From: Vicugna vicugna
Lineage: Eukaryota
Direction of reading: 5' to 3'
Length of the DNA: 64,000 bases
NCBI GenBank assembly: GCA_013265495.1
Contig: MU057981.1
Location: forward strand, 124,001-188,000
Below are positions 2,105 to 45,400 of the stretch, one piece after another; within the stretch, counting starts at the first letter, position 1, and each line of letters opens with the position of its first letter. The notes under the pieces were generated by a model. That model was not told the DNA's origin. It searched no databases and was given only the letters and a program-made list of their open reading frames with translations. Position numbers and translations under genes: made by a program.

Positions 2105-2461
2105 CATTCTCTCTGCTTAAAAATACCATAGACTGTGCATCTTATAAACAGTAGAAAATGAGGTCTCACAGTTTTAAAGGCTGAGGAGTCTAAAACCAAA
2201 GGATGGCAGATCTGGTCTCTGGTGAGGAGCCACCTCCTAGACAGTTGTCTTTTGGCAGTGTCCTCACATGGTGGAAGCAGCAAGGAAGCATCAAGGAAGC
2301 ATCTCAGGCCTCTTTTATAAAGGCACAAGCTGCATCCATGAGGACCCCACCCTGATGACCAAGTCACCTCCCTAAGAGACCTATGTCTTAAAACCATCAC
2401 CTCAAGAGTTACAATTTCAACATACAAGTCTTGGGGGGACATAGACATTGAGACCATAGCA
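2105..2461 (-). mobile_element. MaLR solo LTR (MLT1A-like)
   Basis: Reverse complement starts tgctatggtctcaatgtctatgtccccccaagacttgtatgttgaa, matching the MLT1A start; ~355 bp. Confidence 0.8.
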
Positions 2462-3475: not shown

Positions 3476-3985
3476 CACAATAGTCAAAAATTGGAAGCAA
3501 CACGTGTCTATCAATAGATAAATAAATTAAAATGTGGTCTATATATGTATATAAATACATATATAAATAATATACATATAAATAAACAAATAAATATGTT
3601 TATACATTTTCTTTCCTTTTTTTCCTTTCTTTAAAGAGGAAGGACATTCTGACAAATGCTGCAACATGGATGAAGTTTGATAACATTATGCTAAGTGAAA
3701 TAAGCCAGTCACAAAAGGACGGATGCTGTATGAGTCCACTTAAATGAGGCACCTGGAGAATTCAGACTTACAGAGACAGGAAGGGGAATGGTGGTGGCTA
3801 GGGACTAAGGGGAGGTGGAAATGAAAAGTTAGTGTTTAGTGGATACAAAATTTTAGTTGGAAACGTTGCAAAAGTTTTGAAGTTGTATGACGGTGATGGT
3901 TGCATTACAATGTGAATGTTCTTAATATACTTTAAATGGTTAAAATGGTAAATTTTATTTTGCATATATTATATAACACTTAAAT
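3476..3985 (+). mobile_element. Old L1 (L1MA/L1MB-type) 3' end
   Basis: gcaacatggatgaa...cattatgctaagtgaaataagccagtcacaaaaggac and ggtgatggttgca...aatggttaaaatggtaaatttta. Confidence 0.8.
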
Positions 3986-5450
3986 TAAATCAGCAGATAT
4001 GAATCTCGGTTCACAGATTCTGAAGTACAAGAAATTTAATTCTATTTCAAGCCCTAATTGATCCAAGGTGGCAAAAAATTTGCTTCAATCAATCACTTAA
4101 TCCTACCAGCTCCTTTCCCTCCTTCTGTTCAAGTGTCCCAGGGGAGGAAGCTCACATAGAATCAAGCTTTTCAGGATGTGAGGACCTACCTTGTCTTCAA
4201 CAGCTCTATCAGGTCAGTGCCTACTGAGATACCTCTCAATCCAGGACCATGCATATTCCAATTAAGAAGTCCCTTTTTTCACATATAAATCTGGCTTAAA
4301 AGAACCTCTGAGCACCTGGTGCAGCTGGGGTCTTGTTGCCCACCTAGGGAGGACTCAGGGTCCACAAGCAGGTCCTAAACCCTCCCAGCTCTCAAGTCCC
4401 TTAAACCTCTCTAGGCTCTTGCTTCCCCTCTTAAGCCCATGAAACTCTCATTATCTCTTCTCCATTTTTTGACCCTTTTCCAATACTGAAAAAAAATCCT
4501 TTTACTTTTTAAAAATCTGAACAGTACTGGGGGATATTTAGTAAAGTTTTGTGGAAAGGTCCTTTTTTCTCCCTTTAATTTTCTCCATACATTTGTGACT
4601 CTGGTCTCTAAATGTGAAGTATTTGGAACTTAAAAGTCAGAGCCTACCAGCCTTTTTCATGGTTCATAATGTTACAATCCCTCTCCAATGTAAGGAGCAC
4701 AGAATAGCACATCTGAAGAGGAATGGAAATGTTTGACAGAGAGAGAATGGGAGAAATAACTAACATGTGTAATACTCAACTGAACAAAACACTTAAGTGT
4801 TATTGAGTCATATTTGCACTTTTAAATGCAAAGTAACCACTCCAAATGTTCAAAAATTCAGAGCTGCAGAAGTCTTCATGCTGTACCCAAAGGCCAGGTA
4901 GCGCTGTGTGCCTTGGGTGCCAGAAATCATTCTTTTCTTGCTCATTCTCTTTCCCTTTCTTCCCTCTGCACTTCTCTGCTTTCTTTGGCTTTCTCTCCTT
5001 GCAGGTACTGTGAAAAACAGTGGAAAAAAGTTATTAAAAAAGGTAGACATTCTAACAAAAACTGTAATAGGTTTCTTTGGAAAAATAATGCAAAGAATTT
5101 TTCTATAACAGATGTTCCTCATATAGCACATGTGGAACATATATGGGTGAAGTATTGAGCCAGAATTTTATATTTAAAACTTCCAAAAATTTTTTCAGGT
5201 AAAATAAATAGCCTAATTTTACAGAAAAGGAAACAATGCTTCTGAAATTAAACATGTTGGGCAATTTTATTCCAGCCATTCAGCTATTAAGTGACATCAC
5301 ATTCCACTGCAGACCATTATGTCCTCAAATCTCACACTTATGAGGGAATTCTGTGTTTCCATTCACTAACACTCACAGTTTCATAAATTTATACAACACT
5401 TCATGCCTCTGAAAACATTTTGAAAATTTCTTGAGGCCTACAGCTATCAA

Positions 5451-23428: not shown

Positions 23429-24217
23429 CAAAAAACACATGATCATCTGAATAGATACAGAGAAAGCATTTGATAAAATTCAACACCCATTTATGATTAA
23501 AAAAAAGAAAAACCTTACCAAAGTGGGTGTAGAGGGAACATATCTCAACATAATAAAAGCTGTTTATGACAAACCTATAGCCAGCATAGTACTTAACAGT
23601 GAAAAACTGGAAACATTTCCACTAAAATCTGGGAAAAGACAACATCGTCCACTCTCACCACTTCTATTCAACATAGTCTTGGAAGTCCTAGCCACAGCAA
23701 TCAGGCAAGAAAAAGAAATAAAAAGGATCCAAATTGGAAAAGAAGAGGTAAAATTGTCATTATATGTGAATGACATACTATATATAGAAAACCTGAAAAG
23801 TACCATTAAAAAAACCCCCAAAATTCTAGAGCTAATAAAAGAATTTGGCAAGGTAGCAGGACACAAGATTAACATACACAAATCAGTTGAATTTCTTTAC
23901 ACTAACAATGAATCAAGAGGAAAAGAAAGAAACAATCCCTTTTAAAATTACATCCAAAACAATAAAATACTTAGGAATAAATCTGACAAAGGAGACAAAA
24001 GACGTACAGGTGGAGAACTACAAAACTTTGATTAAGTAAATTAAAGAAGACTTAAAAAAATGGAAAGATAACCCATGCTCCTGGATTGGAAGAATCAGTG
24101 TTATTAAAATGGTCATTCTGTCCCAGGCAATCTACAGATTTAATGCAATCCCTATCAAATTACCCAGGACAGTTTTTACCAAACTGAAACAATAATCTTA
24201 AGATTTATATGGAATCA
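23429..24217 (+). mobile_element. L1 ORF2 (RT region), 5' part, interrupted by the MED24 retrocopy
   Basis: ORF 23493..23945 [21 protein letters not shown]...[25 protein letters not shown]. Confidence 0.95.
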
Positions 24218-26874
24218 AATAGGGAATTTCAGGGTTGGGGAAGGTGGAAGAAATGGGGGGGATCTGGATTCAGGTGGCAGCGGCTGAGGGACGCAGCAAG
24301 AGCTAAGGGTGTAGTTAGGGAATTGGAACCAGCTTAACTCCTTGCTGCCCATTTATCTTTGTATTAAGCCCCTTTGACACCTTCTTCTTAGTGCTCCAGT
24401 TCCAAGGATGGTTTAGGAGGGAAGAACCTGGCAGGATCCCTACTTTGCCCCCTTTCCCTTTTTTTTTTTGACTTTCTATTTCTGCCTCCTTTGCATTTTC
24501 CTGTGTCTTCTCCATTCCATATAACTCTACTCACTGCCCCCCACAGCACCCCGTTCTTTTCCTCAGAATCTCCTCTCCCCTTCTCTAGCTCGATTTCTTC
24601 TGCCTCACAGCTGACCACCACCAGCCTGGTCTCCTGAGTGAAATCATGAAGGTGGTGAACCCGAAGCAAGCTATTTTGCAAGCTTGGAAGGTGCAATGGA
24701 GTGACTACCAGTGGGCAATCAACATGACATTTTTTCCCAAAGGAGCCACCTGGGACATTCTCAACCTGGCAGAAGCACTACTGGAGCAGGCCATGACTGG
24801 ACCTTCCCCCAAACCTCTCATCCTGTCCTACCTGAAGTATGCCATCAGCTCCCCGATGGTGTTCTACTCCTCTGTCCTCACAGCTATCAGGAAGTTTGAT
24901 GACTTTTCCCGGGACCTGTGTGTCCAGGCCTTGCTGGGCATCATGGACATGTTTTGTGACCGACTGAGCTGTCACAACAAAGCAGAGGAGTGCATTGGGC
25001 TGTGCCGGGCCCTTCTCAGTGCCCTCTACCGTCTGCTGCGCCGTACCGCAGCCTCTGCTGAGCGGCTCCAGGACGGGCTGGAGGCTGGCACTCCTGCCGC
25101 AGCTGCCAAAAAGCAGCTTGCTATGTGCCTGCAGCGCCTGTAGAAGACCGTCAGCAGTACCAAGAACTGGGCCCTGCTCCACATGGCCAAACTAGAGGAG
25201 GCTTCCTCCTGGACTGCCATTGAGCAATGCCTCGAAGCCTGGGGATATCCTGGCTGGTCTCAGCAGCCCCCAGCTCTGAAGCCAGGCCTAGCAGTGCGGC
25301 ACACTTATCAGGAGCATCCCCACCATGCTGTCCATGCACTCGGAGCAGCTGCACAAGACTGGCTTCAAGTTCATCCAGAAAATCACCAATAATATCAAAG
25401 GGAAGGTTTGCAATCTGGCAGTGTGTGCCGTGGCTTGGCCGGTGGCCCGTGTGTGGATGCTGGAGCTGGATGACGTGAGAAGTCACTGCAGATGATCCGC
25501 CAGCTGGCAGGGCCACTGTACAGCAAGAATACCCTGCAACTCTACAATGAGAGTGTGGTGATCATGAGCTCCATCCTGGAGCACACGTGTGCTGATGTGT
25601 TGCAGCAGACAGCCATGCAGATCAAGTTCCCATCCATGGGCATGGACACCATGCCCTACTGGAACCTGCTGCCCCCAAAGTGACACATCAAGAAGGTGCT
25701 GATGGACGTTATTTGCCAAGGTACTGGAGAGGGGATGGGTGGACAGCTGCTCCATCCACATCTTTGATGCCCTATTGCACATGGGAGGCATCTACTGGTT
25801 CTTCAACAACCTGATTAGGGAACTGCTGAAGCAGATGCAGAAGGAGCACCTGCTGCGGGTGGTGGAGCTGCCCTACTCCATCTTCTGTCTGGACATGTGG
25901 CAGGGGACCCTGGTCCTGCTGGGCCACATCCTGCCCAGCCTACTCACTGACTCCTCCAAGTGGCACAGCCTCATGGACCCCCTGGCACCACTCTTGCCAA
26001 GCTGGCCATCTGGTGTGCCCTGAGTTCCTACTCCTCACACAAGGGGCAGGTGTCCTCCCGCTGAAAGAAGAGAAACTGTGAAGACATCGAAAATTACATC
26101 AGCCTCTTCCCATTGGACAACATGCAGCCCTCAAAGCTGATGTGACTGCTGAACTCCAATGAGGAAGATGCAAGTATCCTCTCGAATCTCACCAACTGAT
26201 CCATGAGCAGCTCCCTGTCAGCCTCCCAGCTCCACAAATTTAACATGAGACCCACTGAACCGAGTGCTGGCCAATCTGTTCCTGCTTATCTCCTCCATCC
26301 TGGGGTTGCAGCCCACACATGCAGTCTGTGCAGTGGTTCATGGAGCAGTGCATGGACTGCCTGGAGCAGGGCAGCCAGGGCACTGTCCTGCAGTTCATGC
26401 CCTTCACCACCGTATCAGAACTAGTGAAGGTGTCAGCCATGTCCAGCCCCAATGTGGTTCTGGCCATCACAGACCTCAGACTGCCCCTGGGCTGCAAGGT
26501 TGCTGCCAAAGCCATTGCTGCCCTCTGAGGGGCTTGGATTGGCTACCAGGGCTGGCAGGAGAGGGTCCCAGCCCCAGGCACCTCAGAAGGGAACCGTGAG
26601 GAGAGTTGAGACATCATTGGTCATAGCCACATGACATAACAGCCCTCGGTCAGTCGGTTTCCAGATCTTTCCCCTGCTCTTGACCTCTAAGAAGGCTCCC
26701 AGTCTCTTTAGTAATTTCCTCTCTCCACTGCCAGCACCTGGCTCCTTAGCTCAGGGCAGCCTTCCTGTTTTGCACCAGTCCCACCACTCCTCCCCTCCCA
26801 CAGGCAGCTTTACCTCTGAGGGACTGCACAGGTGCAGGGTCTGTGTGTATACATGTATATGTGTATATATGTAT
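24218..26874 (+). pseudogene. MED24: Processed pseudogene of Mediator subunit 24 (TRAP100); coding remnant 24646-26528
   Basis: Intronless; starts MKVVNPKQAILQAWK..WSDYQWAINM and ends VVLAITDLRLPLGCKVAAKAIAAL*; stops at 25141 and 25681, frameshifts, large internal deletion; 15-bp TSD atttatatggaatca at 24203-24217 and 26875-26889. Confidence 0.97.
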
Positions 26875-28399: not shown

Positions 28400-30838
28400 A
28401 GAGGAGAGTTAGTTATCCTGGGCTAGAACCCAGTCCTTCACAAGTCCTTGTCCACCACCTGAGAGCACTGAATCCTCCTCCCAGGAATAGGCTGACATGA
28501 ATACACATTTCCAGTGAACCTGGGTCAGCAGAGGCTGCCCCCCAGGACAGGCCACAGGGAGATGGGAGCAAGTCCACCTTCTCCCCCAGGGCAACCCCCC
28601 TCACCTGGCCACCACTGCCCCCTGACAGCACCTTGCCCACCTCCCGGGAGCCAACTCACCTGGGAACAAGTGTCCCAGGAACCTGGGGCAGCGGTGGGGA
28701 GAGAGGAGCTGCCCCTGATAAACTGGTATATTTGTACGTATCTCCTCTGCAATATGGCCTGGGGGCGGCCTCTGCTGACCCAGCTTCCCGGGATGCCCAT
28801 CTCTTGATTTGCCTGCTCCTGGGAGGCAGGCGCAGTGCGTTCTGGGGGTAGCAGCAATGGTAAAGGGGGGAATGGGGCTGCCCCGTGTGAATACAGGGAT
28901 TTGTTCCCACTTCCCGCTGTCACTGCTGCTGCCCCCCCACAGACTGCACTGCGCCTGCCTCCCAGCAGCAGGCTGACCTGTAACCTGTATCCCACCAACC
29001 TGGGGCAGTAGAGGCCACCCTAGGCCAAGCCACACGGGAGATGGAAGCAAGTCCACCTGCTCCCCAGGGGCAGCTACCCTCCCACCACCGCCACAGCCAC
29101 CTTCCCAGCTGCTGCTGCTGCTGCTGCTGCTTCTGCTGCCCCCTAACAGTGCTGCGCCCACCTCCCAGGAGCCAACTCACCTGGAAGCAAGTGTCCCACA
29201 AACCTGGGGCAGCATTTGCCCCCATCTCCCCTGCATCATGGCCTGGGGGCAACTCCTGCTGCTCCAGCTTTGATGGAGGAACCTTCCCAGGTCAGCCTGC
29301 TCCTGGGAGGTGGCCATAGTGTGCTCAGGGAAGTGATGGCAGTGGGTTAGGGGGGCTGCCATGCGAGCCTTTGGATTTGCTTCAATCTCCCCAGCAGCCT
29401 ATCTCGGGGGCGGCCTCTGCTGCCCCAGATTTGCGGGATGCACGTCTTGGGAACTGCCTGCTCCTGGGAGGCAGGAGCGGTGCAGTCAAAGTGCAGAGGC
29501 TGCAGAAGGGACGACGACGACAGCTGCAGGGGAGGGGGAGATGCTCCGGAGAACCAGTCGAGTTGCTCCAATCTTCCCCACAGCCTGGCCTGGGGGCGGC
29601 CTCTGTTGCCTCAGCTTCCTGGAAGGCAGGTCTCCCTGTCAGCCTGCTGCCCGGAATCAGGCACGGTGCGGTCAGGGGGCAGCGGCAACAAGTGTAGGAG
29701 GGATGCCTCTGCGACCCTGTCCATTTGCTCCCATCTCCCTGTGGCCTGGCCTCGGGGCGGCTTCTGCTGCCCCAGGTTCAGGGGAATCAGGCTACATGAC
29801 AGTCGGCTCCTAGGAGGCTGGGCGGTGAGGTCAGGGGGCAGCAGTGTTTGTAGAGGCTGAGGGAGGGGGGACGCCCTTGGAAAGCTGGTCCACTTGCTCC
29901 CACCTCCCCCGCTGCCTGGCTTTGGGGTGGCCTCTGCTGCCCTAGCTTCTCGGAATGCAATTCTCCCTGTCAGCCTGATCTTGGGAGGCGGGTGCAGCGC
30001 GGTCAGGGGGTGGCAGCGGCGGTGTCATGACTGGGGCTGACCCCGTGAAAGCCTGGGGATTTGCTCCCATTTCCCGCTGCAGCCGCCCCCGCACACTGAC
30101 TGCACCGTGCCCGCCTCCCAGGAGCAGCATGACCTGTAACCTGCGTCCTGAGAACCTAGGACACCAGAGGCCAGCACCAGGCCAGGCTGCAGGGGAGATG
30201 GGAGCAAGCAGACCGGAGCGTCTTGGGCAGGCCCCCTACCCCCGCCGTCAATGCCGCAGCCACCCCCAGACCCCTGACAGCACAGCGCAGGTCTCCCGGG
30301 AGCAAGGTAACCCTAAGACGTGCATCAGGTGAACCTGGGTAAGCAGATGCCGCCCCCAGGCCAGGCCTCGGGAGAGATGCGAACACATCCAGTGGCTCAC
30401 ACCTGGCAGCCCCCCTCCCACCGCCGCCGCCTCTGCCCCCACCCCCTGACCACAGAGCACAAGGCTCCTGGGAGCTGGCTGACCTAGGGCTGTGCCTCCA
30501 GAGAACCTGGGGCAACAGAGGCCGCCCCCAGGCCAGGGCACAGGGAATTGGGAGCAAATCTCCCAGCTTGCAAATGGCAGCACCCTGTTATTCCCGCCTC
30601 GAAAGCTGCCACAGATTTCATCGTCCCCACTACTCCCTGACTGGACCACACAGGCCTTAAGGGAGCAGTCTGACCTAAAGAGGAACCCAGAGCAGCAGAG
30701 GCCGCCCCCAGGCCAGGCAGCAGGAGAGATGGGAGCAAGTAACTGGCTCCCAAGGGACAGCCCCCATCCCCTCGCTGCCACCGCCAAGGCCACGGCCTCT
30801 GCCATCTTCCCAGCCCCCTCGCCCCACTGCGCCCATGG
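28400..30838. repeat. GC-rich tandem array, ~170-180-bp monomer in alternating-orientation blocks
   Basis: Core tggcctgggggcggcctctgctgccccagg is forward at ~28756, 29240, 29405, 29587, 29747 and 29917, and reversed at ~28525, 29005, 30165, 30342, 30512 and 30692. Confidence 0.85.
29108..29139 (+). repeat. (CTG)n microsatellite within the GC-rich array
   Basis: gctgctgctgctgctgctgctgcttctgctgc. Confidence 0.9.
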
Positions 30839-32382
30839 TCTTACTAAAGTGAGTATACAGGAAACATATCTCAACATTATAAAAGCTATTCATGACAAAC
30901 CTACAGTCATATAATACCCTACCAAGGGAGCTGAAAGCTTTTCCACTAAAATATGGAACCAGACAAGGGTGCCCACTCTCATCACTTCTATTCAATATAG
31001 TATTGGAAGTCCTAGCCATAGCAATTAGATAACAAAAAGAAATAAAAGGGATCCAAATTGGAAATGAAGAGATAAAATGTTATTATATGTGGATGACATG
31101 ATGCTATACATAGAAAACCCTAAAAGCTCCACATAAAAACTACTAGAGCTAATAAAAGAAATCAGCAAGGTGGCAGGATAAAACAGGAACATACAGAAAT
31201 TAGTGGCATTTCTTTACACGAAAGTAATAACCCCTTCTAAAGCTGCAAGCAAAAAAGAAATCTGACCCAGGAAGTTAAAGCCTTACACGCGGAGACGTAC
31301 AAAACACTGATTAAGGAAATTACAGAGGACTTAAAGAAATGGAAAGATATCCCATGTTCTTGCATTGGAAGAGTTAATATTGTTAAAATGGCCATACTGC
31401 CCAAAGCAATCTACAGATTTAATGCGAACCCTATCGTATCACATTTTTCACAAAACTACAACAAATCAACGTAAAATTTATATGGAATCACAAAAGACAC
31501 ACAATTACCAAAGCATTACTTTAGAAAGAGATCGAAATTGGAGGAATAACCCTCTCAGACTTCAGACAGTACTACAGAGCTACAGTCATCCATGGTATGG
31601 GTATAAAAACAGATGTATGGATCAATGGACCAGAAACAGAGCCCAGAAACAAACCTACACAATTTTGGTCAATTAATCTCTGACAAAGGAGGCAAGAACA
31701 TACAATGGAGTAAAGACACTCTCTTCAGCAAATTGTGTAGGGAAAACTGGACAGCTGTATGTAAATCAATGAAGTTAGGCTACTCCCTCACCCCATACAC
31801 AAAAATAAATTCAAAATGGCTTAAAGACTTAAACATAAGACAAGACACAATTAACCTCCTAGAAGAAAACATAGGCAAAACATTATCTGACATACATCTC
31901 AGCACTGTTCTCCTAGGGCAGTCTACACAAGCAATGGAAATAAAAGCAAAAAACAAACAGATGGGGACCTAACTAAACTTACAAGCTTTTGCACAGCAAA
32001 GGAAACCATAAGCAAAACAAAAAACCTCTGAAATGGGAGAAAATATTTGTTATACAACAGAATAACCAAGAAAAAAGCAACCCAATCCAAAAATGGGCAG
32101 AAGACCTAAACAAGCATTTCTCCAAGACATACAAATGGCCAATAGGCACATTAAAAAGTAATCAATATCACTAATTATCAGAGAAATGCAAATCAAAACT
32201 ACAATGAGGTATCACCTCACACCAGTCAGAATCGCCATCATTCAAATGTCCACAAAGGAGAAATGCTGCAGATTGTGTGGAGGAAAGGAAACCCTCCTAT
32301 ACTATTGGTGGGAATGTAGTTTGGTGTAGCCATTGTGGAAATCAGTAGGGAGATTTCTCAAAAGACTAAAACTAGACTTGCC
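30839..32382 (+). mobile_element. L1 ORF2 fragment, truncated at both ends
   Basis: [33 protein letters not shown] and LTPYTKINSKWLKDLN motifs; stops abruptly at aaaactagacttgcc with no 3'UTR. Confidence 0.95.
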
Positions 32383-32399
32383 AAAAGCTTTTGATCTCT

Positions 32400-33320
32400 G
32401 GGGCAGGCCGACCAAGCTCCCAAAGGCCCAGGTATCGCCCGTTATTCTGAAATGGAGGGTCCGGAGCGGCCTCCACTCGCCAGGCAGGTCCACCTACGCA
32501 GGATGGCCATGGTCTGAGGACCAGCCGGAGGTGCTCCGGGGTCTGTCCGGCGCCCTCTCACCTCCCATGGTTGCATCTGCTTTCCCAAATCCGTGTGTGA
32601 GCGGCAGTGAAGACACGGGGTTCAGGGACTACTAATGTGGGGGGAGAGAGCATCATGAACCAGGGCTGCGCGTCCTGCCCTGCCTCAGGGTACTAATGCG
32701 ACGCCTCTCCCGGGCCTCATCTACACTCCCCTACCTGTGCGCTTCCCCAACAGCACAGCCCAGGCCTCACCCGCTGGGTCCCTGACCTGCGCGCCCCCAT
32801 CAGTGCCCCCTTACCTGCCCAGCGGCCATACCAGAGGTGAGGGCAAGCGACGGCCCAGACCCCAGGCCGTGCTCCTCCTCGTGGAGCTGGTCCAGGAACA
32901 CCCGGCTCCCGCCAGCGTCCACACGCCCTGGGCGGGTTCAGGCGTCCGCCCGTCTGTGCGTCCGCGCGTGCGCGCCCCTCCCCCTCCCGCCCACGGCGCG
33001 GACGCTCGGGCGGGCGATGGGGCAGCCCCACCCCGCCCACCCACTGCTGGCCTGGGCTGGCTGGGTTCCCGTCCCCAAAACAGTCCCACCCCGGCACCTT
33101 CCAGTCCCTGCGCTCAACTAGATTCACCACCAACCATGAGCCAGGCCACACGCCTCAACCCCACTCCCCCTGCTTGCCTCCTCCCCACCGTCACTGCCCC
33201 CTCAATGCTTAATTGTGTATTTTTATACTCATAAACTTAGGCCAGTGGCCTTCACATTGGAGCACATCTCGGGGTACACAGAGACGGCGCAGGGCACGTG
33301 GGCACAGGGAACATGGGAGA
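32400..33320. promoter_or_regulatory. Orphan CpG island
   Basis: Dense CpG/GC text (e.g. gcgtccgcgcgtgcgcgccc) between an L1 and AT-rich DNA. Confidence 0.7.
32754..32900 (+). pseudogene. ALKAL2: Possible degenerate remnant of the first coding exon of ALK/LTK ligand 2 (FAM150B)
   Basis: Acceptor-like ttccccaacag, then frame ...PQAVLLLVELVQE resembling recalled ALKAL2 GQALLRLVVELVQE; same strand as and upstream of the SH3YL1 remnant, as in human 2p25. The match is short. Confidence 0.4.
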
Positions 33321-34883
33321 CAGGATTTCCAGATCTCCATTTCCCAAGTGTGTTACTCCTCAAAGCAGACCCGTGACATGAGGCTGTCCTGTCTGCTAGC
33401 CTTTCATGGGGGCTTTTTTCCCACTCGAATAAAAGCACCACCAAATCATCTTAATCACATGCACTACACTGTCCCCACAATGTAAGGATAATTATCCAGT
33501 TTGAAATATGGATGTTGATATGGTGTAGTTAGTAAGTCTGATGAGCAGTAAATACTTTTGCAGATTAGGTGATTTCCATTTTTGTGCTTTTAGCAAAACT
33601 GAAGGGGGACCTAATGACATAGTTATCTGAACTTATAGTAAGAGTAGTAATGTATATTATCATTATCATTATATATTAATTATTTCTAAAATCACATAGC
33701 TATCACCAAAATAAAAAGGTATAATAGTAATAGTTTATTACTTTATAAATAATACTTTATTATTGTTTTTTTTTTGATGATAGGTCACTATGTGATTTTT
33801 TTCATCTCTGTCTTGGATGGGATATAGAAGAATTCTGTTACATTGCTATAAAATATCTCATTCTTGCCCTCTCTAGTTTTTATAAAAATCAGCTTTCTTA
33901 GCACCTATGTCTTTAAAAAGGAACACTGAAATACAATTTGATGTTGAACTACATCATTCCAGAAACGAGAAATAGTCATCCTGTGTGTGAACTAATTCTT
34001 AAAAAGTCTTGCCTATATATTCGGATGCATTTCAAATAAAATTTTACTTTCATGTTTAGTAAATTAACAAATTCATAATATATTTCATGTTTTGATCAAT
34101 GAAATGAAACTCAATCTAAGTAATTAATATAGGATTGTATTATTTAAAATTTAAAAATAAACTTAAGCACAATTTTTGTCGTAGAAACCTACCTAAAGAT
34201 ATAATATTAATACATGAGTAAAAATATTTGGGACAAATGGAATGTATGGTTTGAAGTTTAAAAATGAACAGTATGTAATCTCTGACTATTAAAAACATGC
34301 TCACTGATTTTCTTTAATGAATGATGGTGAGTTCAAATCACTATCACCTAAGATCTATTTAGTCAGAAAAGGAGAAATATGATTAAGTAATTGATAATGA
34401 AATATGCTGAACATTATACCTTAAGCTTATATTCAACAATTTTAGGTATCAATTAAAAATATACTAGTGAGTATTGCTTAAAAATTATCTTAGCTGTTAA
34501 GCAAGCAAGGATGTTTGAAAATCACTGGCTCGGGGATTGCAGGGTTTTTTATTTGGGTGTTTTATAATCACTTCTGGAAAAAGATATGCAGATGTGCTTC
34601 TTGATGTGAAAATTTGAATTTCATCTCTGTTTTGAGAGAAGGGATCCAGAAAGCACAGCAGTGAGAACAGCCATAAAAGCCTGGGAGAGATAAGTGACGC
34701 TGCTGTAATGGCACGTGTGCCGGGGCTGGAGGCCTCAAAAGCAGTGACTGGAGAGCATGGTGTTTACATTAAGTCTTTAATGATACAATCAGGGGCATAA
34801 GCATCCACTTTTATCAAATAACTATAAATTATGGAAACTATCATGACTATTTTATTAAAATGGGGAAAACTGAATAATATTAT

Positions 34884-35265
34884 TGTGAGCTGGTGTTGAG
34901 ATGAGTTAAGGCTGTGGGACCCAAGGCCACGACTACAGAGCATGTTTGTAGTATGCAGTAAATAATTGCTCCATGTATGCATCAATTATATAAGATTTAG
35001 AACAAAGAAAGTAGAAGTATGCATGTGCTAGAGATATTCTGTAAGCCTAAAGAGCAAAGAAATTCAGACCACGCATGTGCTGACAGAAAACAGATAAAAC
35101 AGGACAGGTGCATCATAGGCGCGCACCTCCCTGTGGCAATAAAGTGTTGTTAACCCCATGGTGTCTCTGGCTGAAGTCTGTCCAGCAGTATGGCAACTCC
35201 TCGTGCATTTTTTCATTTGGGCCGCTCACCTCCTAGAACCCCACATCAGCCTCCCTCGGCTGACA
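34884..35265 (+). repeat. 5' LTR (382 bp)
   Basis: tgtgagctgg...ggctgaca; AATAAA near 35138. Confidence 0.95.
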
Positions 35266-35267
35266 CT

Positions 35268-35285
35268 TGGCGTAGTCGGCAGGAT
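35268..35285 (+). other. Primer-binding site, tRNA-Ser
   Basis: TGGCGTAGTCGGCAGGAT is complementary over 18/18 nt to the 3' end of vertebrate tRNA-Ser (ATCCTGCCGACTACGCCA). Confidence 0.92.
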
Positions 35286-35333
35286 GAGGTGAGTGCCCCT
35301 ACTGAAACCCCTGCCCCTGACGGGGATGCTCTG

Positions 35334-35822
35334 ATGGAAGCAAAGTGGCCCCCTACCTCTGTATGGTACCCGGTGGCAGCCTATTTGCTGACGTGGGCTC
35401 AACCTGAGGATTGGGATACAGTGGCGCCCCGGCCAGATGACGTCCGGAGGGCATTGGAGCTGTTAGAAAATAATGTCCCATTAGCCCACCGAGAGGCAGC
35501 CGGGAGGGTGGCCTAGATGTTCTTATCTGTTTTACGGCATGCTAGCCAAGACATGAGAGATTTACAGATGCAAGTGGAGGAGTTGCAGTGCAAAGAAGAG
35601 GAGCTTAAGCAGAGACCCAGCATAACAGAAAGATGTCTGCGTGGTCCTCACTCTGCCACCTCTGAGAGCAGCTATGCCTGTATAGCTCTGGTCCCACTGC
35701 CCCTGGGAGCGGTAAGCCCAACACCTCCCCCCATTCCACTGTGTCTACAGCCCGTGGTGAGACAGCAGATGGAAATGGAGGAGCCCATGGCTCAGGGGGG
35801 AATTCCTGCAGGGCCACGGTGA
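35334..35822 (+). pseudogene. gag: ERV gag N-terminal remnant
   Basis: VWYPVAAYLLTWAQPEDW...AGRVA*MFLSVLR resembles HERV-S gag; TAG at 35514 where Trp is expected; abuts RT with no capsid or protease. Confidence 0.75.
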
Positions 35823-35824
35823 GT

Positions 35825-38590
35825 GACACGACATTCCATCCCCCATACATGCCACGGTGCCAAATATAACAAATTTGATAGACCGACTGTCCTATAAACT
35901 GGGTACTTGTCACTATGTGGTTAACCTAACTAATACATTCTTCTCAATAAACATAGCCCCTGAGAGCCAAAAACAGTTTGCCTTCACCTAGAAAGGCAGA
36001 AAATAAACATTTGTTATGTTGCCACAAAAATATCTACACAGCCCTACACTATGTCATGGCCTGGTGGCCCAGGACCTGGCTACATGGAACAAACCAAATA
36101 CCATCCACTTGTTCCATTATATTAATGACATAATGCTAACCTCTGATTCTCTTTCAAATTTAGAAACCAGTGCCACAGCACTGCAAAAAGCCCTGGAGGG
36201 CTAGAGGTGGGCTGTAAACGAGGACAAAGTACAAGGACCTGGATATTCTGTCCAATTCTTGGATGTTATCTGGTCGGGTAAGACAAAAGTACTACCTAAA
36301 ACAGTAATAGACAAAATCCAGACATATTCCCGCCCTAAAACAGTTAAACAGTTACAGACTTATTTAGGTCTTCTAAAATACTGGCGGATATTTATTCCTC
36401 ATTTGGCCCAAAAGCCAAACCCCTGTATAAACTAATTAAAAAAAAAAGTCTAAAATTGGTCTAATGAGACCAAATATACATTTGTTAAAACTAAGAGAAC
36501 AGTGGCCCAAGCACAAGCACAAGCACTATAGATCCAGAAATCCCTTTCTGGTTAACAGTCCATGTAAACAATGATAGATATGGCTGAGACTTATAACAAA
36601 AACATGAACAGCAAAAAGTGCCCATAAAATTCTGGTCTCAGTTGTAAAAAGGGGCTAAATATCGTTGTTCTCTGATTAAAAAACAGTTGCTAGCAACTTA
36701 TACATCCTTGATTGCCACTAAACCCCTAACGGAGAGACAAGAGATCCAAGTACAGACCACATACCCTATTACAGGATAGATACAGACATGGAGAAAACAA
36801 CCCCGATCAAAAACTGCCCAAACCCCAACTCTAACGAAGTGGGGTGCTTATTTAAAACAGCGAGCCCAGTACACCGTTAGCCCCTTAACTACAGAGTTGC
36901 AACAGATATTAGGGCCTGTAAAATTTGTTGCGCCTGATGTACAGATACTCCCACAACAAGGGGTGGACCCTATACCCAGTCCCTTTTGTAAAAAAAAAGG
37001 GCCACCCCCAAAAACTACTTAATATACTGATAAATTGTAAGGGCAGTCCGCCCACTTGGGTTGCAGTAGCACTGCACCCTGCCACTAAAGCCTTCTGATA
37101 TGAGACCAGAAAAGGCCAATCCAGCCAATGGGCTAAGTTATAGACAGTATGGCTGATGTTGATAAATAAACCTAGCCCCTTACAAATTTATACAGATAGT
37201 TGGGCCATATATCGAGGCCTTACATTGTGGATACCCCAATGGGCCCTACAAGACTAAATAATTGGACACCGACCCCTGTGGAGACAACAGATGTAAAAAC
37301 AGTTATAAAACAAAGGCCAAAAAGGCCAATATACTGTTTACCACGTACTAGGGCAGCGCCCAGCCCTGGCACCAGACAATGATGCTGCTGATGTGCTAGC
37401 CCAACTCTGCCCTGTACAGGCTATGGTCCCAGGACCTGATATAGGTCCCTGGCTCCATAAAAAACTTGGTCATGTTAGCTCATACACAATGAGACAGGTA
37501 GCCGACTAGTGGGGCCTACTCCTGAACCACAGTAAAGCCAAAGATGCCATGCGGCAATGTCCATGGTGTGCTAAACCCCACCCGCACCGGCGGCGATGGC
37601 CCCAACAGATAAAAAAGATTGCACGAAAAATTCAGCCATTACAGTATGACAAATAGGTTACGTAGGCCCCTTTGCTCCAAGTACAGGCTTGCGGTACCTG
37701 CTGACAGCGGTAGACACCGCGACTGGTCTAGGTTTTGCTCACCATGTGCCCCAAGCTACACAAGACTCTACTATTAAAACACTAAAAGTTTTACAGACCT
37801 TCTATGGGACTCCCTTAAAAATACAAAGTAATAGAGGGACCCCTTTCACTGCCCAACAGACCCAAAAATGGGCCAAAAAAATAATATTAACTAGATATTA
37901 CATGTGCCTTACCGTCCTCAAACAGCAAAAATGATTAAATGGTACAATGACCTATTAAAGAACAAACTGAGGGCTCTCAAACCACAAGGGCGAGACTAAA
38001 ACAATGTCTTGCCACAGGCGATACGTCTTTTAAATAAACAACCTCGCCGTATGGGTATGAGCCCACTAAAAAAGTTATTACAAGAGACTATTCAGAGACC
38101 CAGAGTTGGGCCCGTACAGGATGCCTCCAATGTCTCAATAGTGGGACATGCATTAATATTACGTGCCCCCAGAATGTTAAACTCAAAAAAACAAGACACC
38201 TGGACATAAAAAAAATCAGGTCCAGACTAAAGGCCCCTGACTAGCCCTTTTAAAACCATGGGACAATGGGCTAGAAAAAGCCCTACAGGTAACCCCACGA
38301 GTGGGGAAATAGCCTTTTAATGTACAGGTTAAAAAACAAAAATGTCCCTACTTAAAAAAACAAAAGCCCTACGGCTTTGGACAATTCCACTAATAGCTCC
38401 TAAAGCTCTCCCAGAGTGTAACCAACCTAATGTGGGCGGGTTGTTATGGTACCACCGCCCAGGGCGAACAGCCCTTCCTGCCACTGTACTCTCACAAAAT
38501 AAAAAAGTGGCTTACATCCTCCCCAAAAAAAAAAAAAAAGATTTGCCAATCATGATGTCCACCTCTACTCTGTCCTTCCGTCCAGGGTAA
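35825..38590 (+). pseudogene. pol: ERV pol remnant (RT, RNase H, integrase, C-terminal extension)
   Basis: LPQKYLHSP (LPQG), HYIND (YIDD) at 36118-36129, *YTDK (WYTDG) at ~37020, HHCC zinc finger at 37450-37570, YLLTAVDTATG and IQSNRGTPF. Confidence 0.9.
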
Positions 38591-39735
38591 CAACAAATAC
38601 CATGTTCTCCTGAACACACACATTCGCGCAAGTCCACAATGTCTCTCACTGTTGGGTCTGTACTAAACTTCCTAGACGCAAAAGATGGACTGCCGTGGCA
38701 CCTCCACCCCGCGTCCAGAGCTAATTAGAGCACCTTGATTCAATAAAATGCCAACAGGACAGCAAGATCGCCCTGGGACTTGCGGCGACAGACTATTAAA
38801 AAAATACTCCAACGTGAGTGGGCAATGCCCCCCCTTATTAAAAAAACTATATAAAATAAGTAAAAATAGATAAATAATGTTCATATAAAAATAAAAAAAT
38901 TTAAGCCCACTCTATATTAAACAGTGGTTTGAACACGAGGCCCCAAACCGCACAATGGGGTGGCTCACAAAAGAGCTATGTACCAAAATTACTTATAATG
39001 TAAATGCCTCCACCTGATAAAATAAATGACCTCTAATTAACACAAAACCCACTGATTTCCTGCCACCAGGATATCTGTGGGCATATAACACCCACAGATG
39101 GTCGTATCTCCCAGCTAAATGGACAGGGTGCTGTACTTGGGGTAGAGCTTAATTGTCCGGACATACCCAAGCCCACTTTAACAGAGTGCCCCACAAATTG
39201 GGACCCACTGCACACCCGATGGCACCGGGAAAAGCGTACAGCTTGGTGGTTTTATCCTATGGCTCTGTTCCTGCCTGGTACTGGGACCATCAATGTTAAA
39301 TTACAGATAAAAGCTTTAGCTCAACACATATCAGCTGTACTAAATGTTACTAAAAGAGCTATAAAAAATTTGTTAAACAAGACTACCCAGATACAAAAGG
39401 TAGTCTTACAAAATAAAATGACATTAGATATTCTCACTAAAAGCCAAAATGACACATATACTATATTACATATTAAATGTTGTATCTATATACCAAATCA
39501 CCAAAAAAAGTAGCTAAAACACTACATAAAATAAATCAAAAATTAAATCACATAAATCACGTAACTCAAAAGCCCCTTAAAAATTAATGGTCATCCTTGA
39601 CGTCCTCCTAAAAATAGAGCCTAACTGTCCTGGCTATTGTTGCTGTTTGTGTATTAGTAAAATACTGTACTTTATATTGTTATTGTGGTCTTTGGACACA
39701 ATACTCAGCCCTGTGGGCTAGGGTTCCCATGACCT
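38550..39735 (+). pseudogene. env: ERV env remnant, gamma-type
   Basis: CWVC at 38650-38661, furin site REKR at 39226-39237, hydrophobic fusion peptide, ISD-like LQNKMTLDIL, decayed CX6CC, TM anchor at ~39620-39690. Confidence 0.88.
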
Positions 39736-39746
39736 AGGGGGTGGAA

Positions 39747-40168
39747 TGTGAGCTGGTGTTGAGATGAGTTAAGGCCGTGGGACCCAAGGCCACAATCGGA
39801 GCACTGAGATGAGTTAAGGCTGTGGGACCCAAGGCCACGACTACAGAGCATGTTTGTAGTATGCAGTAAATAATTGCTCCATGTATGCGTCAATTATATA
39901 AGATTTAGAACAAAGAAAGTAGAAGTACGCATGTGCTAGAGATATTCTGTAAGCCTAAAGAGCAAAGAAATTCAGACCACGCATGTGCTGACAGAAAACA
40001 GATAAAACAGGACAGGTGCATCATAGGCGCGCACCTCCCTGTGGCAATAAAATGTTGTTAACGGTGTCTCTGGCTGAAGTCTGTCCAGCAGTATGGCAAC
40101 TCCTCGTGCATTTTTTCGTTTGGGCCACTCACCTCCTAGAACCCCACATCAGCCTCCTTTGGCTAACA
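39747..40168 (+). repeat. 3' LTR (422 bp)
   Basis: Preceded by a purine tract (agggggtggaa); has an extra 45-bp unit and a 5-bp deletion relative to the 5' LTR. Confidence 0.95.
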
Positions 40169-40443
40169 ATTATTTTATATATTATTCAGAATTTAAACAA
40201 TAATAACCACAAATATTTGCTAAACACTTGTTTAAGTACATAATTATATGCAGTTTGACTTGTGTGGATTTAGGGAATGTTATTAACAAAAATTTGCTCT
40301 TCACAATGTGGTGAAATCACACAGCCCACGTGCTTCCAACGGGTCAGCATACCGAGCCCCAATTTAATTGATATGTTACTGGCACATACTTTCAGTTTTC
40401 TCATAGACATGTGAATAATTTAAATACTTCTTTCTTGTTTTAG

Positions 40444-40632
40444 GCAATTCAAACCAACCTACAGAAGTGACAGCACTATATTTCTTTGAAGGACAACAAC
40501 CAGGAGATGAATTTTCAAGCTGGAGACAGAATCACAGTTATATCAAAAACAGACTTGTGTTTTGATTGGTGGGAAGGAAAGCTCTGAGGTCAAACCGACA
40601 TTTTTCCAGCCAACTCTGTTACCATGAATTAA
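40444..40632 (+). pseudogene. SH3YL1: Unprocessed last coding exon (SH3 domain) of SH3YL1, disabled
   Basis: Acceptor tttcttgttttag; NQPTEVTALYFFEGQQPGD / NFQAGDRITVISKTD..FDWWEGKL*GQTDIFPANSVTMN*; frameshift after GD and in-frame TGA; followed by AT-rich 3'UTR-like DNA. Confidence 0.92.
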
Positions 40633-41344
40633 AGTTCATATTATTTCCTTCTTTGAGAATTACAAGAAAATTATTTCTACACACACAGGATTTACTATCC
40701 AGTTAAACAATGTTTAATACAAGTTCAAAAACTCTTCTGTTTATTCCATAAACTTTTATCCTCTATGTAAAAGATTTTGTTTTTCTTTATGTAAATGGTT
40801 CTTACGTATTTTTAAATACTTTCCACAAATTTTATTACATATACTATTTAATAGTTAATGTCTTCTAATTTATATGGTCACACTTCTTTTGTGTTCATTT
40901 TCAAAAATCTATTAACGTTTTATTTGGCTTTGTACATGATGACTTTAATTTGGGAAGCTTAAGAATGGGGCATGAATCCTAACTGGTTATTAAGTAATAT
41001 TCAGAGTTGTAGGTACTAGCTAGAATATTGATTCTTAAAATTACTTCTATACCTTCAAAAATTGCATATGTATGTTTCATGGACATATATGTAACATGCT
41101 ATTACAAAGATATTCAACCACTATTCATTAAAAAAAGATGACATCTATTAACTTTTCCTCTTTGTGAGGTTATGTTCATTTGCAGCAGTATAGTAAACTT
41201 ATGTTGACATGGTTCTCTTGTCCCTAAATAAATGTTTTTAAGTGTTAAGTTAATGTTTTGGTCTTGTTTTTCTTATTCACTTTTTGTAAAGTAACCAGAG
41301 GTCTGTGGTTGGTCTGCAACTCACCTCCATGATTATACTGCTAA

Positions 41345-44300
41345 ATTCTTTTTTCAGCTTTATAAACATAAAATTGACAAATAAAATAGTAAAAAATTTA
41401 AAGGTTCTGTGATTTGAAATACACAGTCATTGTGAAAGGATTCCTACTGAGTTAATGGACACATTCAACATCTCACAAATTTATTTTTATTTGATGAGAA
41501 CCCTTAAGTTCTCTCTTAGCAAATTTCAGTTATGGAATGCAACATTATAACTGTAGTCACCACACTGTACATTAGATTCCCAGAACATACTCCTCTTAGA
41601 AACTGGAAGTTTGTACCCTTTGATCAACATCTCTTAATTTTGCTGACCTCCCAACCCCTGGTCAACACCAATCTACTCTCTGTTTCTATTAGCTTGGCTT
41701 TTTTGAATCCCATTTGATACTACACAGTATTTGTCTTTCTCTGATTTATTTCATTTAAAATAATCCCCTCAAGTTTCATCCATGTTGTTGTAAATTTCAG
41801 GATTTTCTTCCTTTGTTTATATATATATATATATATCACATGTTCCTTATCCATTCATCTGTTGATGGACATTTAGGGTTTTCCATATATAATAACATGG
41901 CATCTGTAAGCAGAGATAATCTTACTTCCTCCTTTCCAGTTTGAATGCCTTTTATTTGTTTTTCTTGCCTAATTTCTCTGGCCATGGCTTCCAGTACAAT
42001 GCTGAATAGAACTGATGATAGTGGACGTCCTGATTGTTCCTGATCCTGGAGGAAATGTTCCCAGATTTTCACTGTAGAATATGATGTTAGCTGTGGACTG
42101 GTCAAACAAGAGAAAGTTGTTTAATCTCCACATATTTGTGAACTTTCCAGTTTTCTTCTTATAATTGATTTCTAGTTTCATACAATTGTGGCCAGAAAAA
42201 GATGCTTGATATGATTTCAATTATCTTAAATTCATTAAGACCTGTTTTGTGCCTACATAGGCTCTATCCTGGAGAATCTTCCATGTACACTTGCCAAGAA
42301 TGTGTATTCTGCTGCTATTGGATGGAATGTTCTATAAATGTCTGTTATGTCCAACTGGTCTGACACATTATATAAAGCCAATGTTTCCTTATTGATTTTC
42401 TGTCTGGATGATCTATCCATTGATGAAAGTAGGGTGTCAAAATTCCCCCCCCAAACACACATAATTATGTATTGCTATCTGTTTCATCTTTTAGGTCTGT
42501 TAATATTTGCTTTATATATTCAGCTGCTCCTATGTTGGGCACATGCATATTTACAAACATTATAGCCTCTTGTTGAATTGACCCCTTTATTATTATATAA
42601 TGACCTCTGTCTCTTATTACAGTATCTTGATTACAGTCTATTTTTCTGATATAAGTATAGTGATCTCTGCTTTCTTTTGGTTTTTGTTTGCATGAAATTT
42701 CTTTTTCTATTCCTTCACTTTCAGTCTGCATGTGTCTTTAAAGCTATTGAGTCTTTTGTAGGCAGCATATAGTTGGGTGTTTTTTTTTTTTTAATCCATG
42801 TAGCTACTCTCTGTCTTTTGATTAGAGAATTTAGTCTAGTCCATTTACACTTGAAGTAATAATTGATAGGTAAGGACTTACTATTGCCATTTTGTTCATT
42901 ATTTCTTGGCTGTTTTGTAATTCCACTGCCCCTACCTTCATGTCTTAGTGATTTGATAATTTTATGTAGTGCTATTCTTAATTTCTTTCTCTCCTTCTTT
43001 TGTATATCTACTGTATATTTTTGCTTTGTGTTTACCATGAGGTTTACAGAAAACATAACAGTCTGTTTTAAGCTGATAATAACTTTGTACCATATTAAAT
43101 CTCTGCATTTTTACTCTCTCCCCACATTTTATGCCTTTAACGTCACAAGTTATCTATTTTTACCTGTGTATTCATCGACAAATTATAGTTACTTCAATGC
43201 TTTGTTATTTAACCTTCATACTAGATTTATAAGTGATTTAACCACCAGCAACATTACAATAGGAGAGAATTCTGAATGTAACTCTATTTTTAATTTTACC
43301 AGTGAGTTTTAAGCTTTCATATGCTTTCCTGTTACTGATTTGCATCATTTCATTTCCTCTTGAAGAACTACATTTAGCATCTCTCGTGAGGCAATGTTAG
43401 TGGTGGTGAACTTCTTCAGCTTTTGTTTGTCTGTAAAACTCTTTATCTCTCCTTTAATTCTGAAGGACAGCTTTGCCAGGTAGAGGATTCTTGGTTGATG
43501 GTTTTTTCTTTCAGCATTTTGAATGCATATCACCCTGAGAGCTCTCTTCTGGCCTGTAAGGTTTCTGCTGAAAAATTCAGTGGCAGTCTTATGAGGGTTC
43601 TTTTGTCATAATAAGTTTCTTTTCTCTTGCTGCTTTTAAGACTGTCTTCTTGTCTTTAACTTCTAACTGTTGAATTATAATGTGTCTTAGTGTGGGATTC
43701 TTTAGATGCAGCTTATTTGGAATTCTGGGCTTCCTGGGTCAGGACGTCTGTTTCTCTCCCCAGTTTAGGGAAGTTTTCAGCCATTATTTCTTTGAAAAGG
43801 CATTCTGCCTCTTTTCCTTTCTCTTTTCCTCTGGAACTTCTATAATGTACATGTTCAACTGCTTGGTGGTTCCTGAAATTACCCTAAATGTCTTCACTCT
43901 TTATTATTTTTCTTTTTTGTTCTCTGCTTGAATAAATTCTACTGCCTTGTTTTCAAGTTTTTTGATCATTCATTTTGCTCAATCTAGTCTACTATTGAAC
44001 CTCTCATTTGAATTTTTCAGTTAAATTATTTTTATTCTATTTTTTAGTTCTATGATTGCTGTTTTGTACTTTTCAATAGTTTCTATCTCTTGTTGAAGTT
44101 TTCACTTTGTTCATGCATTGTTCTCCTGAATCAGTGAGCATCTTTATGACTGTAATTTTGAACTCTCTATCAGGTAAATCATTTCTTTCTATTTCAATAT
44201 GGTAAGCTTCTGAAGATTTATCTTGTTCTTCTGCTTGGAATATATTCCCCTACTTCTTCATTTTCCTTGACTCTCTGTGTTGGTTTCAGCACATTACATA

Positions 44301-45400
44301 AAACCACCACCTCTCCCAGTCTGGATGGAATGGTCTCATGTGGGAGTTGAACCCTGGTAGTCAGCCCAGCCTGAGCTCCCAGTTGTCTATCTTAAACCCC
44401 TGTAATTGTCCAAGCTGCTATCTTTGTTTTTAGTGGCTCCCAAGACCCATCAGTTTTCCAAAGGGGAAACTCTCGGTCAGTGCCTAAATGTAGGTTGATT
44501 GGAAATTGGACCCTCAGACAGGACTGAGAAAGTATGTATTGAAAGCTGTTCTATGGAGAAACTGGGAGATGAGTGTTTTCACTTGCTCACTCCATGCTGA
44601 GGTGTGGGGTGTAGCTGGGGGTATTCCTGTGTCCATTTAAAAAGTGCATCTTTGTTTCAGTCCTGTGGGACTCTGGAGTATAATTCCTGCAGGCCACCAA
44701 ACCCGGGTGATTGGGGACCCATCCCTCAAATGGCAGGTATAAAAGCTGGGGCACTAGATGTGTGGACAAGCTCCTTCCAGGGAGATGCTTGGTTTACTGT
44801 TGGAGTGAACCAGAGGGAGAAGGCAGGGCTCCAGGAGGGTCACAGCTGGCACCTGGGTGTGTGCTAATTAGATGCTGGGCCCCAGGCAGCCCTTTGCAAA
44901 GTCTGCAACCAAACCCCCTCCAAAGAAGTGGAAGAGGGAAGATGGCATTTCTACCTGCAACCTCTGAGCTGGGGCCTCGGGGAGTAGCCCAGCAGGTGCT
45001 GGTGCTCCCACTGGTTCCCTGTTTGCTGCATTCCTGGGGGACTGGTGAACACAGGCCCTGCTGACTTTAAGAGCTCAGTGACCTTGGATCTCGTCCCTTG
45101 GATGGAAGTCTTAAAGCTGGGGGGGTGTTAGTTGTTCAGTTTAGATCCCTTGCTCCACAGGGAGAAGCTGGGAGTTGGGGGTCCCCTCAATTGCAGGGCA
45201 CTGTGCTGGGGGTGGGGTGTATGGTGGGGGTGTGCCTTTCCTACCCCTTCTTATGGGGGTGTTTTCTGTTACCTAATGTGTAGGAATCACTCAGCCAGGC
45301 TCTGGGATTCTCGCAGAGGCAACTGCTCCATGAATAGCCATGTAGTCAGCGCCTCTGTGGTAGAAGGGAAATTCAGGAGCCTCCAAGTCACCATCTTTGT
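41345..45400 (-). mobile_element. Older L1 with 5'UTR, ORF1, endonuclease and 3' end; most of ORF2 deleted
   Basis: GNFDTLLSSMDRSSRQKINKET...DIYRTFHP (EN), QPRILYLAKLSFRIKGEIKSFTDKQKLKKF (ORF1), 5'-end caccatctt near 45390, L1MA-like 3'UTR at 41345-41890. Confidence 0.9.

Follow-up and report, generated by a model that had tools for sequence, protein, structure and literature searches.

Endogenous retroviruses (ERVs) of class III are mostly known as very old relics without an envelope gene (env). A 5-bp target-site duplication (TSD) is a trait of this class, whereas gammaretrovirus-like class I elements have a 4-bp duplication, and one lineage, ERV-S, is named after its serine (Ser) primer-binding site (PBS). 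ERV-S has been described as a lineage of ERV3 without dUTPase, with HERV18/HERVS being an ERV3 element that carries an ERV1-like env (PMC5753468); the env of HERVS is related to PABL, and the Gag proteins of both HERVL and HERVS are without zinc fingers (PMC4724089). Here, we describe a provirus at positions 34884-40168 of a 64,000-nucleotide (nt) stretch of Vicugna vicugna DNA (assembly GCA_013265495.1, contig MU057981.1, positions 124,001 to 188,000 of the forward strand), referred to below as the window. The provirus is very probably a defective ERV-S-like element, which combines a class III/ERV3 pol without dUTPase, a zinc-finger-less Gag, a PABL-like gamma-type env and priming by tRNA-Ser. 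Its virus type is already known from other mammals, and the locus itself is a dead, deleted and edited member of a moderately young family. Coordinates are positions in the window, where all features of the element lie on the forward strand; positions given as provirus positions are numbered separately from the start of the provirus.

Among the closest known systems, HERV-S (HERV18/LTR18) has a serine PBS, like the family described here. It is also alike in its dUTPase-less ERV3 pol, its PABL-related env and its zinc-finger-less Gag (PMC5753468, PMC4724089). In contrast, the long terminal repeats (LTRs) of human class III elements are described as diverging by 13-42% (PMC4724089), as against 1.0-6.4% in the alpaca-type family, and the latter has been primed by two tRNA-Ser isoacceptors (AGA/TGA, and CGA in two older copies). 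Every published ERV-S feature that we checked is present, HERV18 itself being compared by description only. ERV-L elements (HERV-L, MuERV-L) share the broad pol clade and the 5-bp duplication, but they have a dUTPase after the integrase and no env, whereas the family has an env and no dUTPase. The avian class III ERVs (aviervIII/birddawg) come close in that Pols from Phasianus and Tympanuchus, together with a 1093-aa Pol, form the sister group of the family at 50-60% identity, although they belong to another host class and the likeness is read from galliform Pol proteins rather than from aviervIII itself. Galliform class III ERVs have been tied to HERV-S in the literature (PMC3482500), and this is the sole link of the family to HERV18. 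For the envelope, the nearest described proteins are of the ERVPABLB-1 type, with relatives in ass, sloth and bat that are similarly short (426-483 aa); their names come from an automatic pipeline, and the comparison covers ass, sloth and bats.

The serine priming of the element can be read directly from its sequence. The PBS (TGGCGTAGTCGGCAGGAT, 35268-35285) lies 2 bases past the 5' LTR and is complementary to the 3' end, including CCA, of tRNA-Ser(AGA/TGA), which it matches at 18 of 18 positions, two CpG sites notwithstanding. When the complement of the 15-nt PBS core plus seven T-arm bases was searched in the host genome (2.03 Gb, 12,405 contigs), 11 exact matches were obtained, and ARAGORN called a tRNA-Ser at every one of them (ten AGA and one TGA). 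Because all 11 complement loci are tRNA-Ser genes, the primer site is real and serine-specific, and the perfect 18-nt serine PBS reported in an earlier note on this DNA is confirmed, as is the 5-bp TSD claimed there (ATTAT at 34879-34883 and again at 40169-40173). Six sister proviruses of 6143-6770 bp each (L042-L047) were compared with the window copy; three of them have the same PBS, and in one more it has decayed. The remaining two, L045 and L046, are older (Kimura two-parameter distance (K2P) between their LTRs 0.044 and 0.064) and have a different PBS just after the 5' LTR, the complement of which is found once in the genome, at the sole tRNA-Ser(CGA) gene (L048, 1441-1522). With a CGA-type PBS in these two older sisters, the family has therefore switched between two serine tRNA isoacceptors (AGA/TGA and CGA).

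The remaining pol of the window copy consists of an N-terminally truncated reverse transcriptase (RT), a connection domain and an RNase H (35840-37405; recognised by the Pfam families RVT_1, RT_RNaseH_2 and RNase_H and interrupted by many stops), followed by the integrase up to the pol stop (37406-38590, with the rve core at 37633-37919), after which no dUTPase follows. The Pfam scores of this copy are 4.9e-4 for RVT_1 (below the curated cut-off), 1.2e-8 for rve and 4.8e-5 for the envelope family TLV_coat; frames of sister copies give RVP (weak), RVT_1 (6.5e-25), RT_RNaseH_2, RNase_H, rve (7.8e-17) and TLV_coat (2.5e-10). A dUTPase (PF00692) was found in none of 29 open reading frame pieces downstream of RNase H in four copies, and the pol stop overlaps with the env start. 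The nearest solved structure to the integrase is that of foamy virus (3e-17), with mouse mammary tumour virus next (1e-13). The nearest Pol proteins are from mole (62% identity), the 1093-aa Pol (60%), leaf-nosed bat (57%) and galliform birds (50-60%), and partial Camelus Pol models are 88-94% identical; the next tier (39-44%) comprises amphibian and fish Pols, and the three of these that were scanned are composed of RT, RNase H, integrase and dUTPase. In a quick maximum-likelihood tree of RT-RNase H (36 rows, 743 columns; support by the SH-like approximate likelihood ratio test (SH-aLRT) only; rows exclusive of HERV-S/HERV18, HERV-L, MuERV-L, foamy virus and class I/II references), the family forms one clade with the mole, bat and galliform Pols (SH-aLRT 100). 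This dUTPase-less clade is nested among dUTPase-bearing Pols (SH-aLRT 98), which agrees with the ERV-L-related pol proposed earlier, within a tree that holds no class I/II rows. Pols named ENS-3 fall in the same 29-row ingroup as the family, and Ens-3 has been called 'probably class III' in a paper on avian ERVs (PMC3482500). A scan of viral contigs with the Pol alignment gave no confirmed relatives among 46 pattern matches, and no foamy virus or MLV entries came up in word-based protein searches.

The Gag and Env parts fit the same description. In none of six copies do the initial 2400 nt, read in three frames, encode a zinc finger of the type C-X2-C-X4-H-X4-C, no Pfam family matches Gag up to E 10 (Gag_p30 and Gag_MA included), and no solved structure matches it better than E 0.4. 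As a lead only, an Fv1 cluster ranks fourth for Gag in the protein atlas (0.83, below the atlas reliability line). The env body (38586-39737) contains a CWVC motif (38650-38661), a cleavage-site region (at about 39232), an immunosuppressive domain (ISD) stretch from 39409 onward, a degenerate CX6CC, a membrane anchor and a stop at 39735-39737. Sister copies show CWVC, a furin-type site, the ISD and CX6CC; in the window copy CWVC is present and the ISD stretch is recognisable, whereas the first Cys of CX6CC is a Tyr, so that the last of the three motifs listed in the earlier note is intact only in the sisters. When a sister env is used as a query, with its two stops read as X, the named relatives are all PABLB member 1 Env proteins, from ass (46%), sloth (40%) and bats (38-46%). 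Together with the TLV_coat matches, this upholds the view that the element bears an env and that this env is gamma-type, that is class-I-type and PABL-like.

Between provirus positions 945 and 957, the window copy has a deletion that amounts to 1190-1488 bp when measured against the six sisters; the protease is missing, together with the 3' part of gag and the beginning of RT. The junction was placed by BLAST at 35829-35839, and in the pol search of the host genome all other copies begin to match at 35840. Upstream of it, the leader and 5' gag remnant (35190-35828) contain one stop (35514-35516, a Trp codon in L046), are 94% identical to L042 and show no excess of G-to-A differences. Downstream, the copy has been changed on a large scale. 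Editing was measured by pairwise counts against the six sisters, free of any consensus, with pol-env defined as provirus 957-4860. Within pol-env, 258-379 sites per sister have G in the sister and A in the window copy, as against 21-56 sites with the reverse, and C/T differences are roughly symmetric (sister C and copy T at 20-43 sites, sister T and copy C at 12-67). The LTRs and leader have no such excess (10-25 G-to-A, 7-21 in reverse). In the full pairwise matrix the excess is private to the window copy, with 266-389 vs 27-68 sites against every sister. Of all plus-strand G's in pol-env, about 35% appear as A in the window copy; the edited fraction is about 3% at provirus 383-700, 37-40% just past the deletion and 63% in the bin that directly precedes the polypurine tract (PPT), and it is at background level in the 3' LTR. 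In work on HIV, the APOBEC3 gradient has been established as a rise from weakly edited sequence near the 5' end to strongly edited sequence close to the PPT. By dinucleotide context, the edited fraction is 0.55 for GA, 0.33 for GC, 0.31 for GG and 0.24 for GT, and of the 23 stops that fall within open frames of L042, 22 have arisen from TGG by change to TAG, TGA or TAA. The longest sense-strand open frame left in the provirus is 158 aa.

All four signature features, namely a private excess, C/T symmetry, spared LTRs and stops derived from TGG, are present, and the window copy is an APOBEC3-hypermutated provirus; we infer the editing enzyme itself from this pattern. Because the pattern is the APOBEC3 signature on minus-strand cDNA, the copy would have been crippled before integration. 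In the proposed course of events, viral RNA would have been reverse-transcribed from a tRNA-Ser primer, and a host APOBEC3-type cytidine deaminase would have edited the minus-strand cDNA while it was single-stranded, so that, from the gag remnant to the PPT, A replaced about 35% of the G's on the plus strand, most often in the context GA. The LTRs, which are double-stranded soonest, would have escaped, and the edited DNA would have been integrated with a 5-bp duplication as a copy that was non-functional on arrival. The copy also lost 1.2-1.5 kb of gag-pro-RT, a deletion the timing of which we infer. Two of the sisters, L043 and L044, show a moderate private G-to-A excess of their own when compared with L042 and L047 (133/45, 145/47, 125/53 and 134/59), with C/T changes roughly balanced; the family has therefore been edited more than once. 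Among the ultra-edited elements described by Knisbacher and Levanon (2016, PMC4866542), the record is held by an ERVL of the zebra finch, in which 353 sites within 4304 bp have been edited, and mammalian editing is found mainly in ERVK and ERV1 rather than ERVL; alpaca and camel do not figure in the main text of that paper. The window copy resembles these elements in its load (258-389 G-to-A vs 21-68 reverse sites in 3.2-3.9 kb) and in the conversion of TGG to stops, and differs from them in being ERV-S-like, whereas the mammalian cases in the paper are mainly ERVK/ERV1 (PMC4866542).

The LTR clock stays usable because the LTRs were spared from editing. The two LTRs, delimited by a repeat finder and pairwise alignment, both have TG...CA ends and measure 382 bp (5', 34884-35265) and 422 bp (3', 39747-40168). 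They differ by eight transitions (five in CpG context) and one transversion over 367 aligned sites (K2P 0.0251), by one more difference inside a repeated 45-bp unit, and by two indels: the 3' LTR has two copies of the 45-bp tandem unit and has lost CCCAT. This 5-bp deletion is private, as CCCAT is missing from one of 40 family LTRs examined, which is the window copy's own 3' LTR. The earlier count of eight substitutions and two indels was thus essentially right, with nine substitutions on recount. The 45-bp unit, situated at the LTR start, occurs in one or two copies and varies in this respect among the LTRs of the family. With mammalian rates of 2.2e-9 and 1e-9 substitutions per site and year, the K2P of the LTR pair translates into about 5.7 and about 12.5 million years (My), and the window copy would accordingly be roughly 6-12 My old. 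Integration within the last few million years, as proposed earlier, therefore appears optimistic; a K2P of 0.025 fits about 5.7-12.5 My better. The provirus may also be traced in public runs, since 20 of them, from seven studies and with four coded organism labels, contain 0.55-0.65 of the sampled words from 33400-41600. As the flanks account for only 36% of this interval and no scored paralogue exceeds 89% identity to the edited interior, those 20 runs would have to hold this very provirus; the best-scoring one may be the assembly's own sample.

The window copy belongs to a sizeable family in the host genome. A search with the 5' LTR gave 308 candidates, of which 40 were scored; these are 92-100% identical to the query when its own two LTRs are included, and other copies are 92-96% identical. 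The pol part gave 50 candidates and the env part 42, with 40 scored in each case and other copies at most 89% and 86% identical, respectively, so the family comprises about 50 proviruses and over 300 LTR candidates. The LTR-pair K2P values of the seven proviruses are 0.010, 0.025 (window copy), 0.027, 0.044, 0.056, 0.058 and 0.064, which at the general mammalian rates places the sampled family at about 2 to 30 My, and 5-bp TSDs are readable at four of the six sisters (TTTCT, CCCTC, CTCAC and GGTTG). The intact relatives anticipated earlier did not emerge. None of the six sisters has a complete pol or env frame; three colinear full-span env matches carry 2, 7 and 7 stops, the rest being fragmented; and, among eight full-span matches to the 483-aa RT-RNase H stretch, the only stop-free one is at the query's own locus, all these figures being lower bounds from 102 scored of 479 env candidates and 88 scored of 1611 RT-RNase H candidates. 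Other env-like frames, on several contigs, are 30-38% identical over 200-330 residues, most of them stop-free in the match; these belong to other ERV families of the host genome.

Nor is the family undescribed, as had been suggested, in the sense that the NCBI already has gene models from it in alpaca and camels. The env of sister L045 matches the NCBI-named Vicugna pacos protein P0172, the best-scoring protein in the env search, in three blocks at 97.7%, 95% and 99.5%, the last of which spans 220 aa, and family models from Camelus ferus and C. dromedarius reach at best 93% and 89%, respectively, anywhere in the host genome. The probable camelid host proposed in the earlier note from the sequence alone is borne out by these identities, which mark the host genome as that of alpaca or a very near relative and not of Camelus. 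A literature search found no specific description of a camelid ERV-S or of APOBEC3-edited alpaca ERVs.

Other explanations have been considered for the editing pattern, the age and the class of the element. Many retroviruses are A-rich, and the sister copies are also somewhat A-rich, which would be in line with A-richness that is native to the virus or due to a post-integration bias instead of cDNA editing; we give this next to no credence, as the asymmetry is private to the window copy against every sister, ends at the LTR borders and converts TGG to stops, while C/T changes remain symmetric. More can be said for a separate history of the unedited 5' part and the hypermutated 3' part, in which a template switch or recombination made both the deletion and the editing step. 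The edited G fraction at provirus 701-945 is 7-10% against four sisters (5-7 of 68-73 G's) and 17-18% against L045 and L046, as compared with 30-38% just past the junction at 957-1100 (9-13 of 30-35 G's), and the 5' part is 94% identical to L042, whereas the 3' part is 85% identical. We nevertheless consider such an origin unlikely, because the APOBEC3 gradient also predicts a low 5' and a high PPT-proximal level, the missing 1.2-1.5 kb could hold the rise in editing, and the 3' LTR is also unedited, as the gradient predicts. As the family itself exists in Camelus, the insertion might be older than the split between camels and llamas and its LTRs homogenised by gene conversion, but this is very improbable in view of the perfect TSD, the PBS that matches at all 18 positions in spite of its two CpG sites, the modest non-G-to-A differences to the closest sisters and the graded series of sister LTR divergence from 1.0 to 6.4%.

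That the element is instead a class I ERV (gamma/epsilon-like) whose pol has diverged could be argued on the basis of the gamma-type env and of the solved structures, among which the RT is best matched by murine leukaemia virus/xenotropic MLV-related virus (MLV/XMRV; 158 bits, 2.7e-45), slightly above the foamy virus protease-RT (149 bits, 1.5e-42) and followed by Ty3 (107 bits), HERV-K RT (84) and HIV-2 (about 70). We find this hardly credible: the match to MLV scores no more than 158 bits, about as much as the match to foamy virus, P0100, a Pol with ERV-L architecture, has the same structure-score profile as the family RT, and the family nests among Pols with a dUTPase after the integrase. 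Moreover, Gag_p30 and Gag_MA are absent at E 10, as are zinc fingers, and the TSD is 5 bp and not 4 bp, all of which speaks against a gammaretrovirus-like class I element. Membership in the spumaretroviruses (foamy viruses) is likewise contradicted by the TLV_coat env, the lack of a Pfam Gag and the RT score of only 149 bits. The protein P0126 was tried as a class I marker and rejected, as its Gag_p30 lies after the integrase (a chimeric model) and its RT is not MLV-like. Several points weigh against our own interpretation of the locus as an APOBEC3-edited ERV-S-like provirus of the stated age. Precisely where the deletion junction lies, the editing level leaps from about 8% to about 37%; a step of this kind is not expected from a simple gradient, unless the increase took place within the deleted stretch. 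No enzyme can be assigned because all four dinucleotide contexts are heavily edited. The dating rates are general values, none of them measured for camelids, and presence in other species is judged by the share of words contained in runs with coded organism labels. The assignment to class III is based on domain architecture, on names given by others (ENS-3, as treated in PMC3482500) and on score profiles against the Protein Data Bank, and the tree is a quick search with SH-aLRT values only, in which the reference Pols are not among the rows.

For the host genome, the provirus is an ordinary dead insertion. Its interest lies in the finding that an env-bearing virus of the ERV-S type still made germ-line copies in camelids at an LTR divergence of 1-6%, and in an editing load that is among the heaviest described for a mammalian class III element. 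The locus and its sisters thereby form a natural archive of APOBEC3 restriction in Tylopoda to which dates can be given, and the family additionally contains a candidate for a viral signal peptide whose coding sequence is overprinted on that of reverse transcriptase.

The latter possibility arises from the NCBI env gene models P0172 (alpaca) and P0177 (wild camel), which map to the family as three or four blocks. In these models, the coding path begins at an ATG in U5, runs through the PBS to the donor GAG/GTGAGT, continues in an exon of 120 nt that lies within RT and is read in another frame, and is joined to the env body at a pyrimidine-rich CAG acceptor. The blocks correspond to 35158-35288, 36158-36277 and 38586 onward in the window and to 750-881, 2926-3048 and 5349-6008 in L045. 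The donor-like sequence in the window, GATGAG/GTGAGT (35283-35294), has its putative exon end at 35288. This first donor is kept in seven of seven copies, the mini-exon acceptor in five, the mini-exon donor in six and the env-body acceptor in all seven; the mini-exon acceptor has been lost through G-to-A change in the window copy, where CAG is now CAA, and in one sister. In the window, the reading frame is maintained across all three pieces, and at least 33 of 40 LTRs have the U5 ATG (35158) with its CCCATGG context. The mini-exon of sister copies encodes ...TWIFCQILGCCLVG, a peptide that can be aligned to the hydrophobic segment at the N-terminus of the PABLB-like Env models from ass, sloth and bat. 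Coding through U5 and PBS is unusual. We tentatively propose that Env may be produced from a doubly spliced mRNA composed of the U5-ATG exon, the 120-nt RT mini-exon, which would provide the core of the signal peptide, and the env body, although we lean slightly towards doubting it; predicted gene models and sequence signals suggest this arrangement, the donor being a putative one. If it is true, the overprinting would therefore be old and shared across mammalian orders, given that the mini-exon peptide aligns across ass, sloth and bat. A specific report of a spliced HERV-S env was not found in a literature search. A second ATG in U5, at 35190, opens a frame that continues into gag in three sister copies.

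The remaining features of the provirus are of a conventional kind. The 5' LTR contains a TATA-like TATATAAG at 34987 and an AATAAA at 35138, and the polypurine tract (AGGGGGTGGAA, 39736-39746) directly adjoins the 3' LTR; it is found before the 3' LTR in three of the six sisters (L042, L043 and L047) and is altered in L045. An Rfam scan of 30000-45000 returned no RNA families at the gathering score. In the surroundings of the provirus, two RT-like frames on the forward strand, at 23451-23945 (RVT_1 2.7e-15) and 9245-9667 (RVT_1 1.2e-4), are unrelated to it and are probably remains of LINEs or other retroelements. About 10 kb upstream of the provirus, an uninterrupted 184-aa frame on the forward strand (24589-25143) corresponds to positions 1-162 of the Pfam family Med24_N (E 5e-62), and this single open frame over the Med24_N span suggests a processed pseudogene (retrocopy) of MED24.

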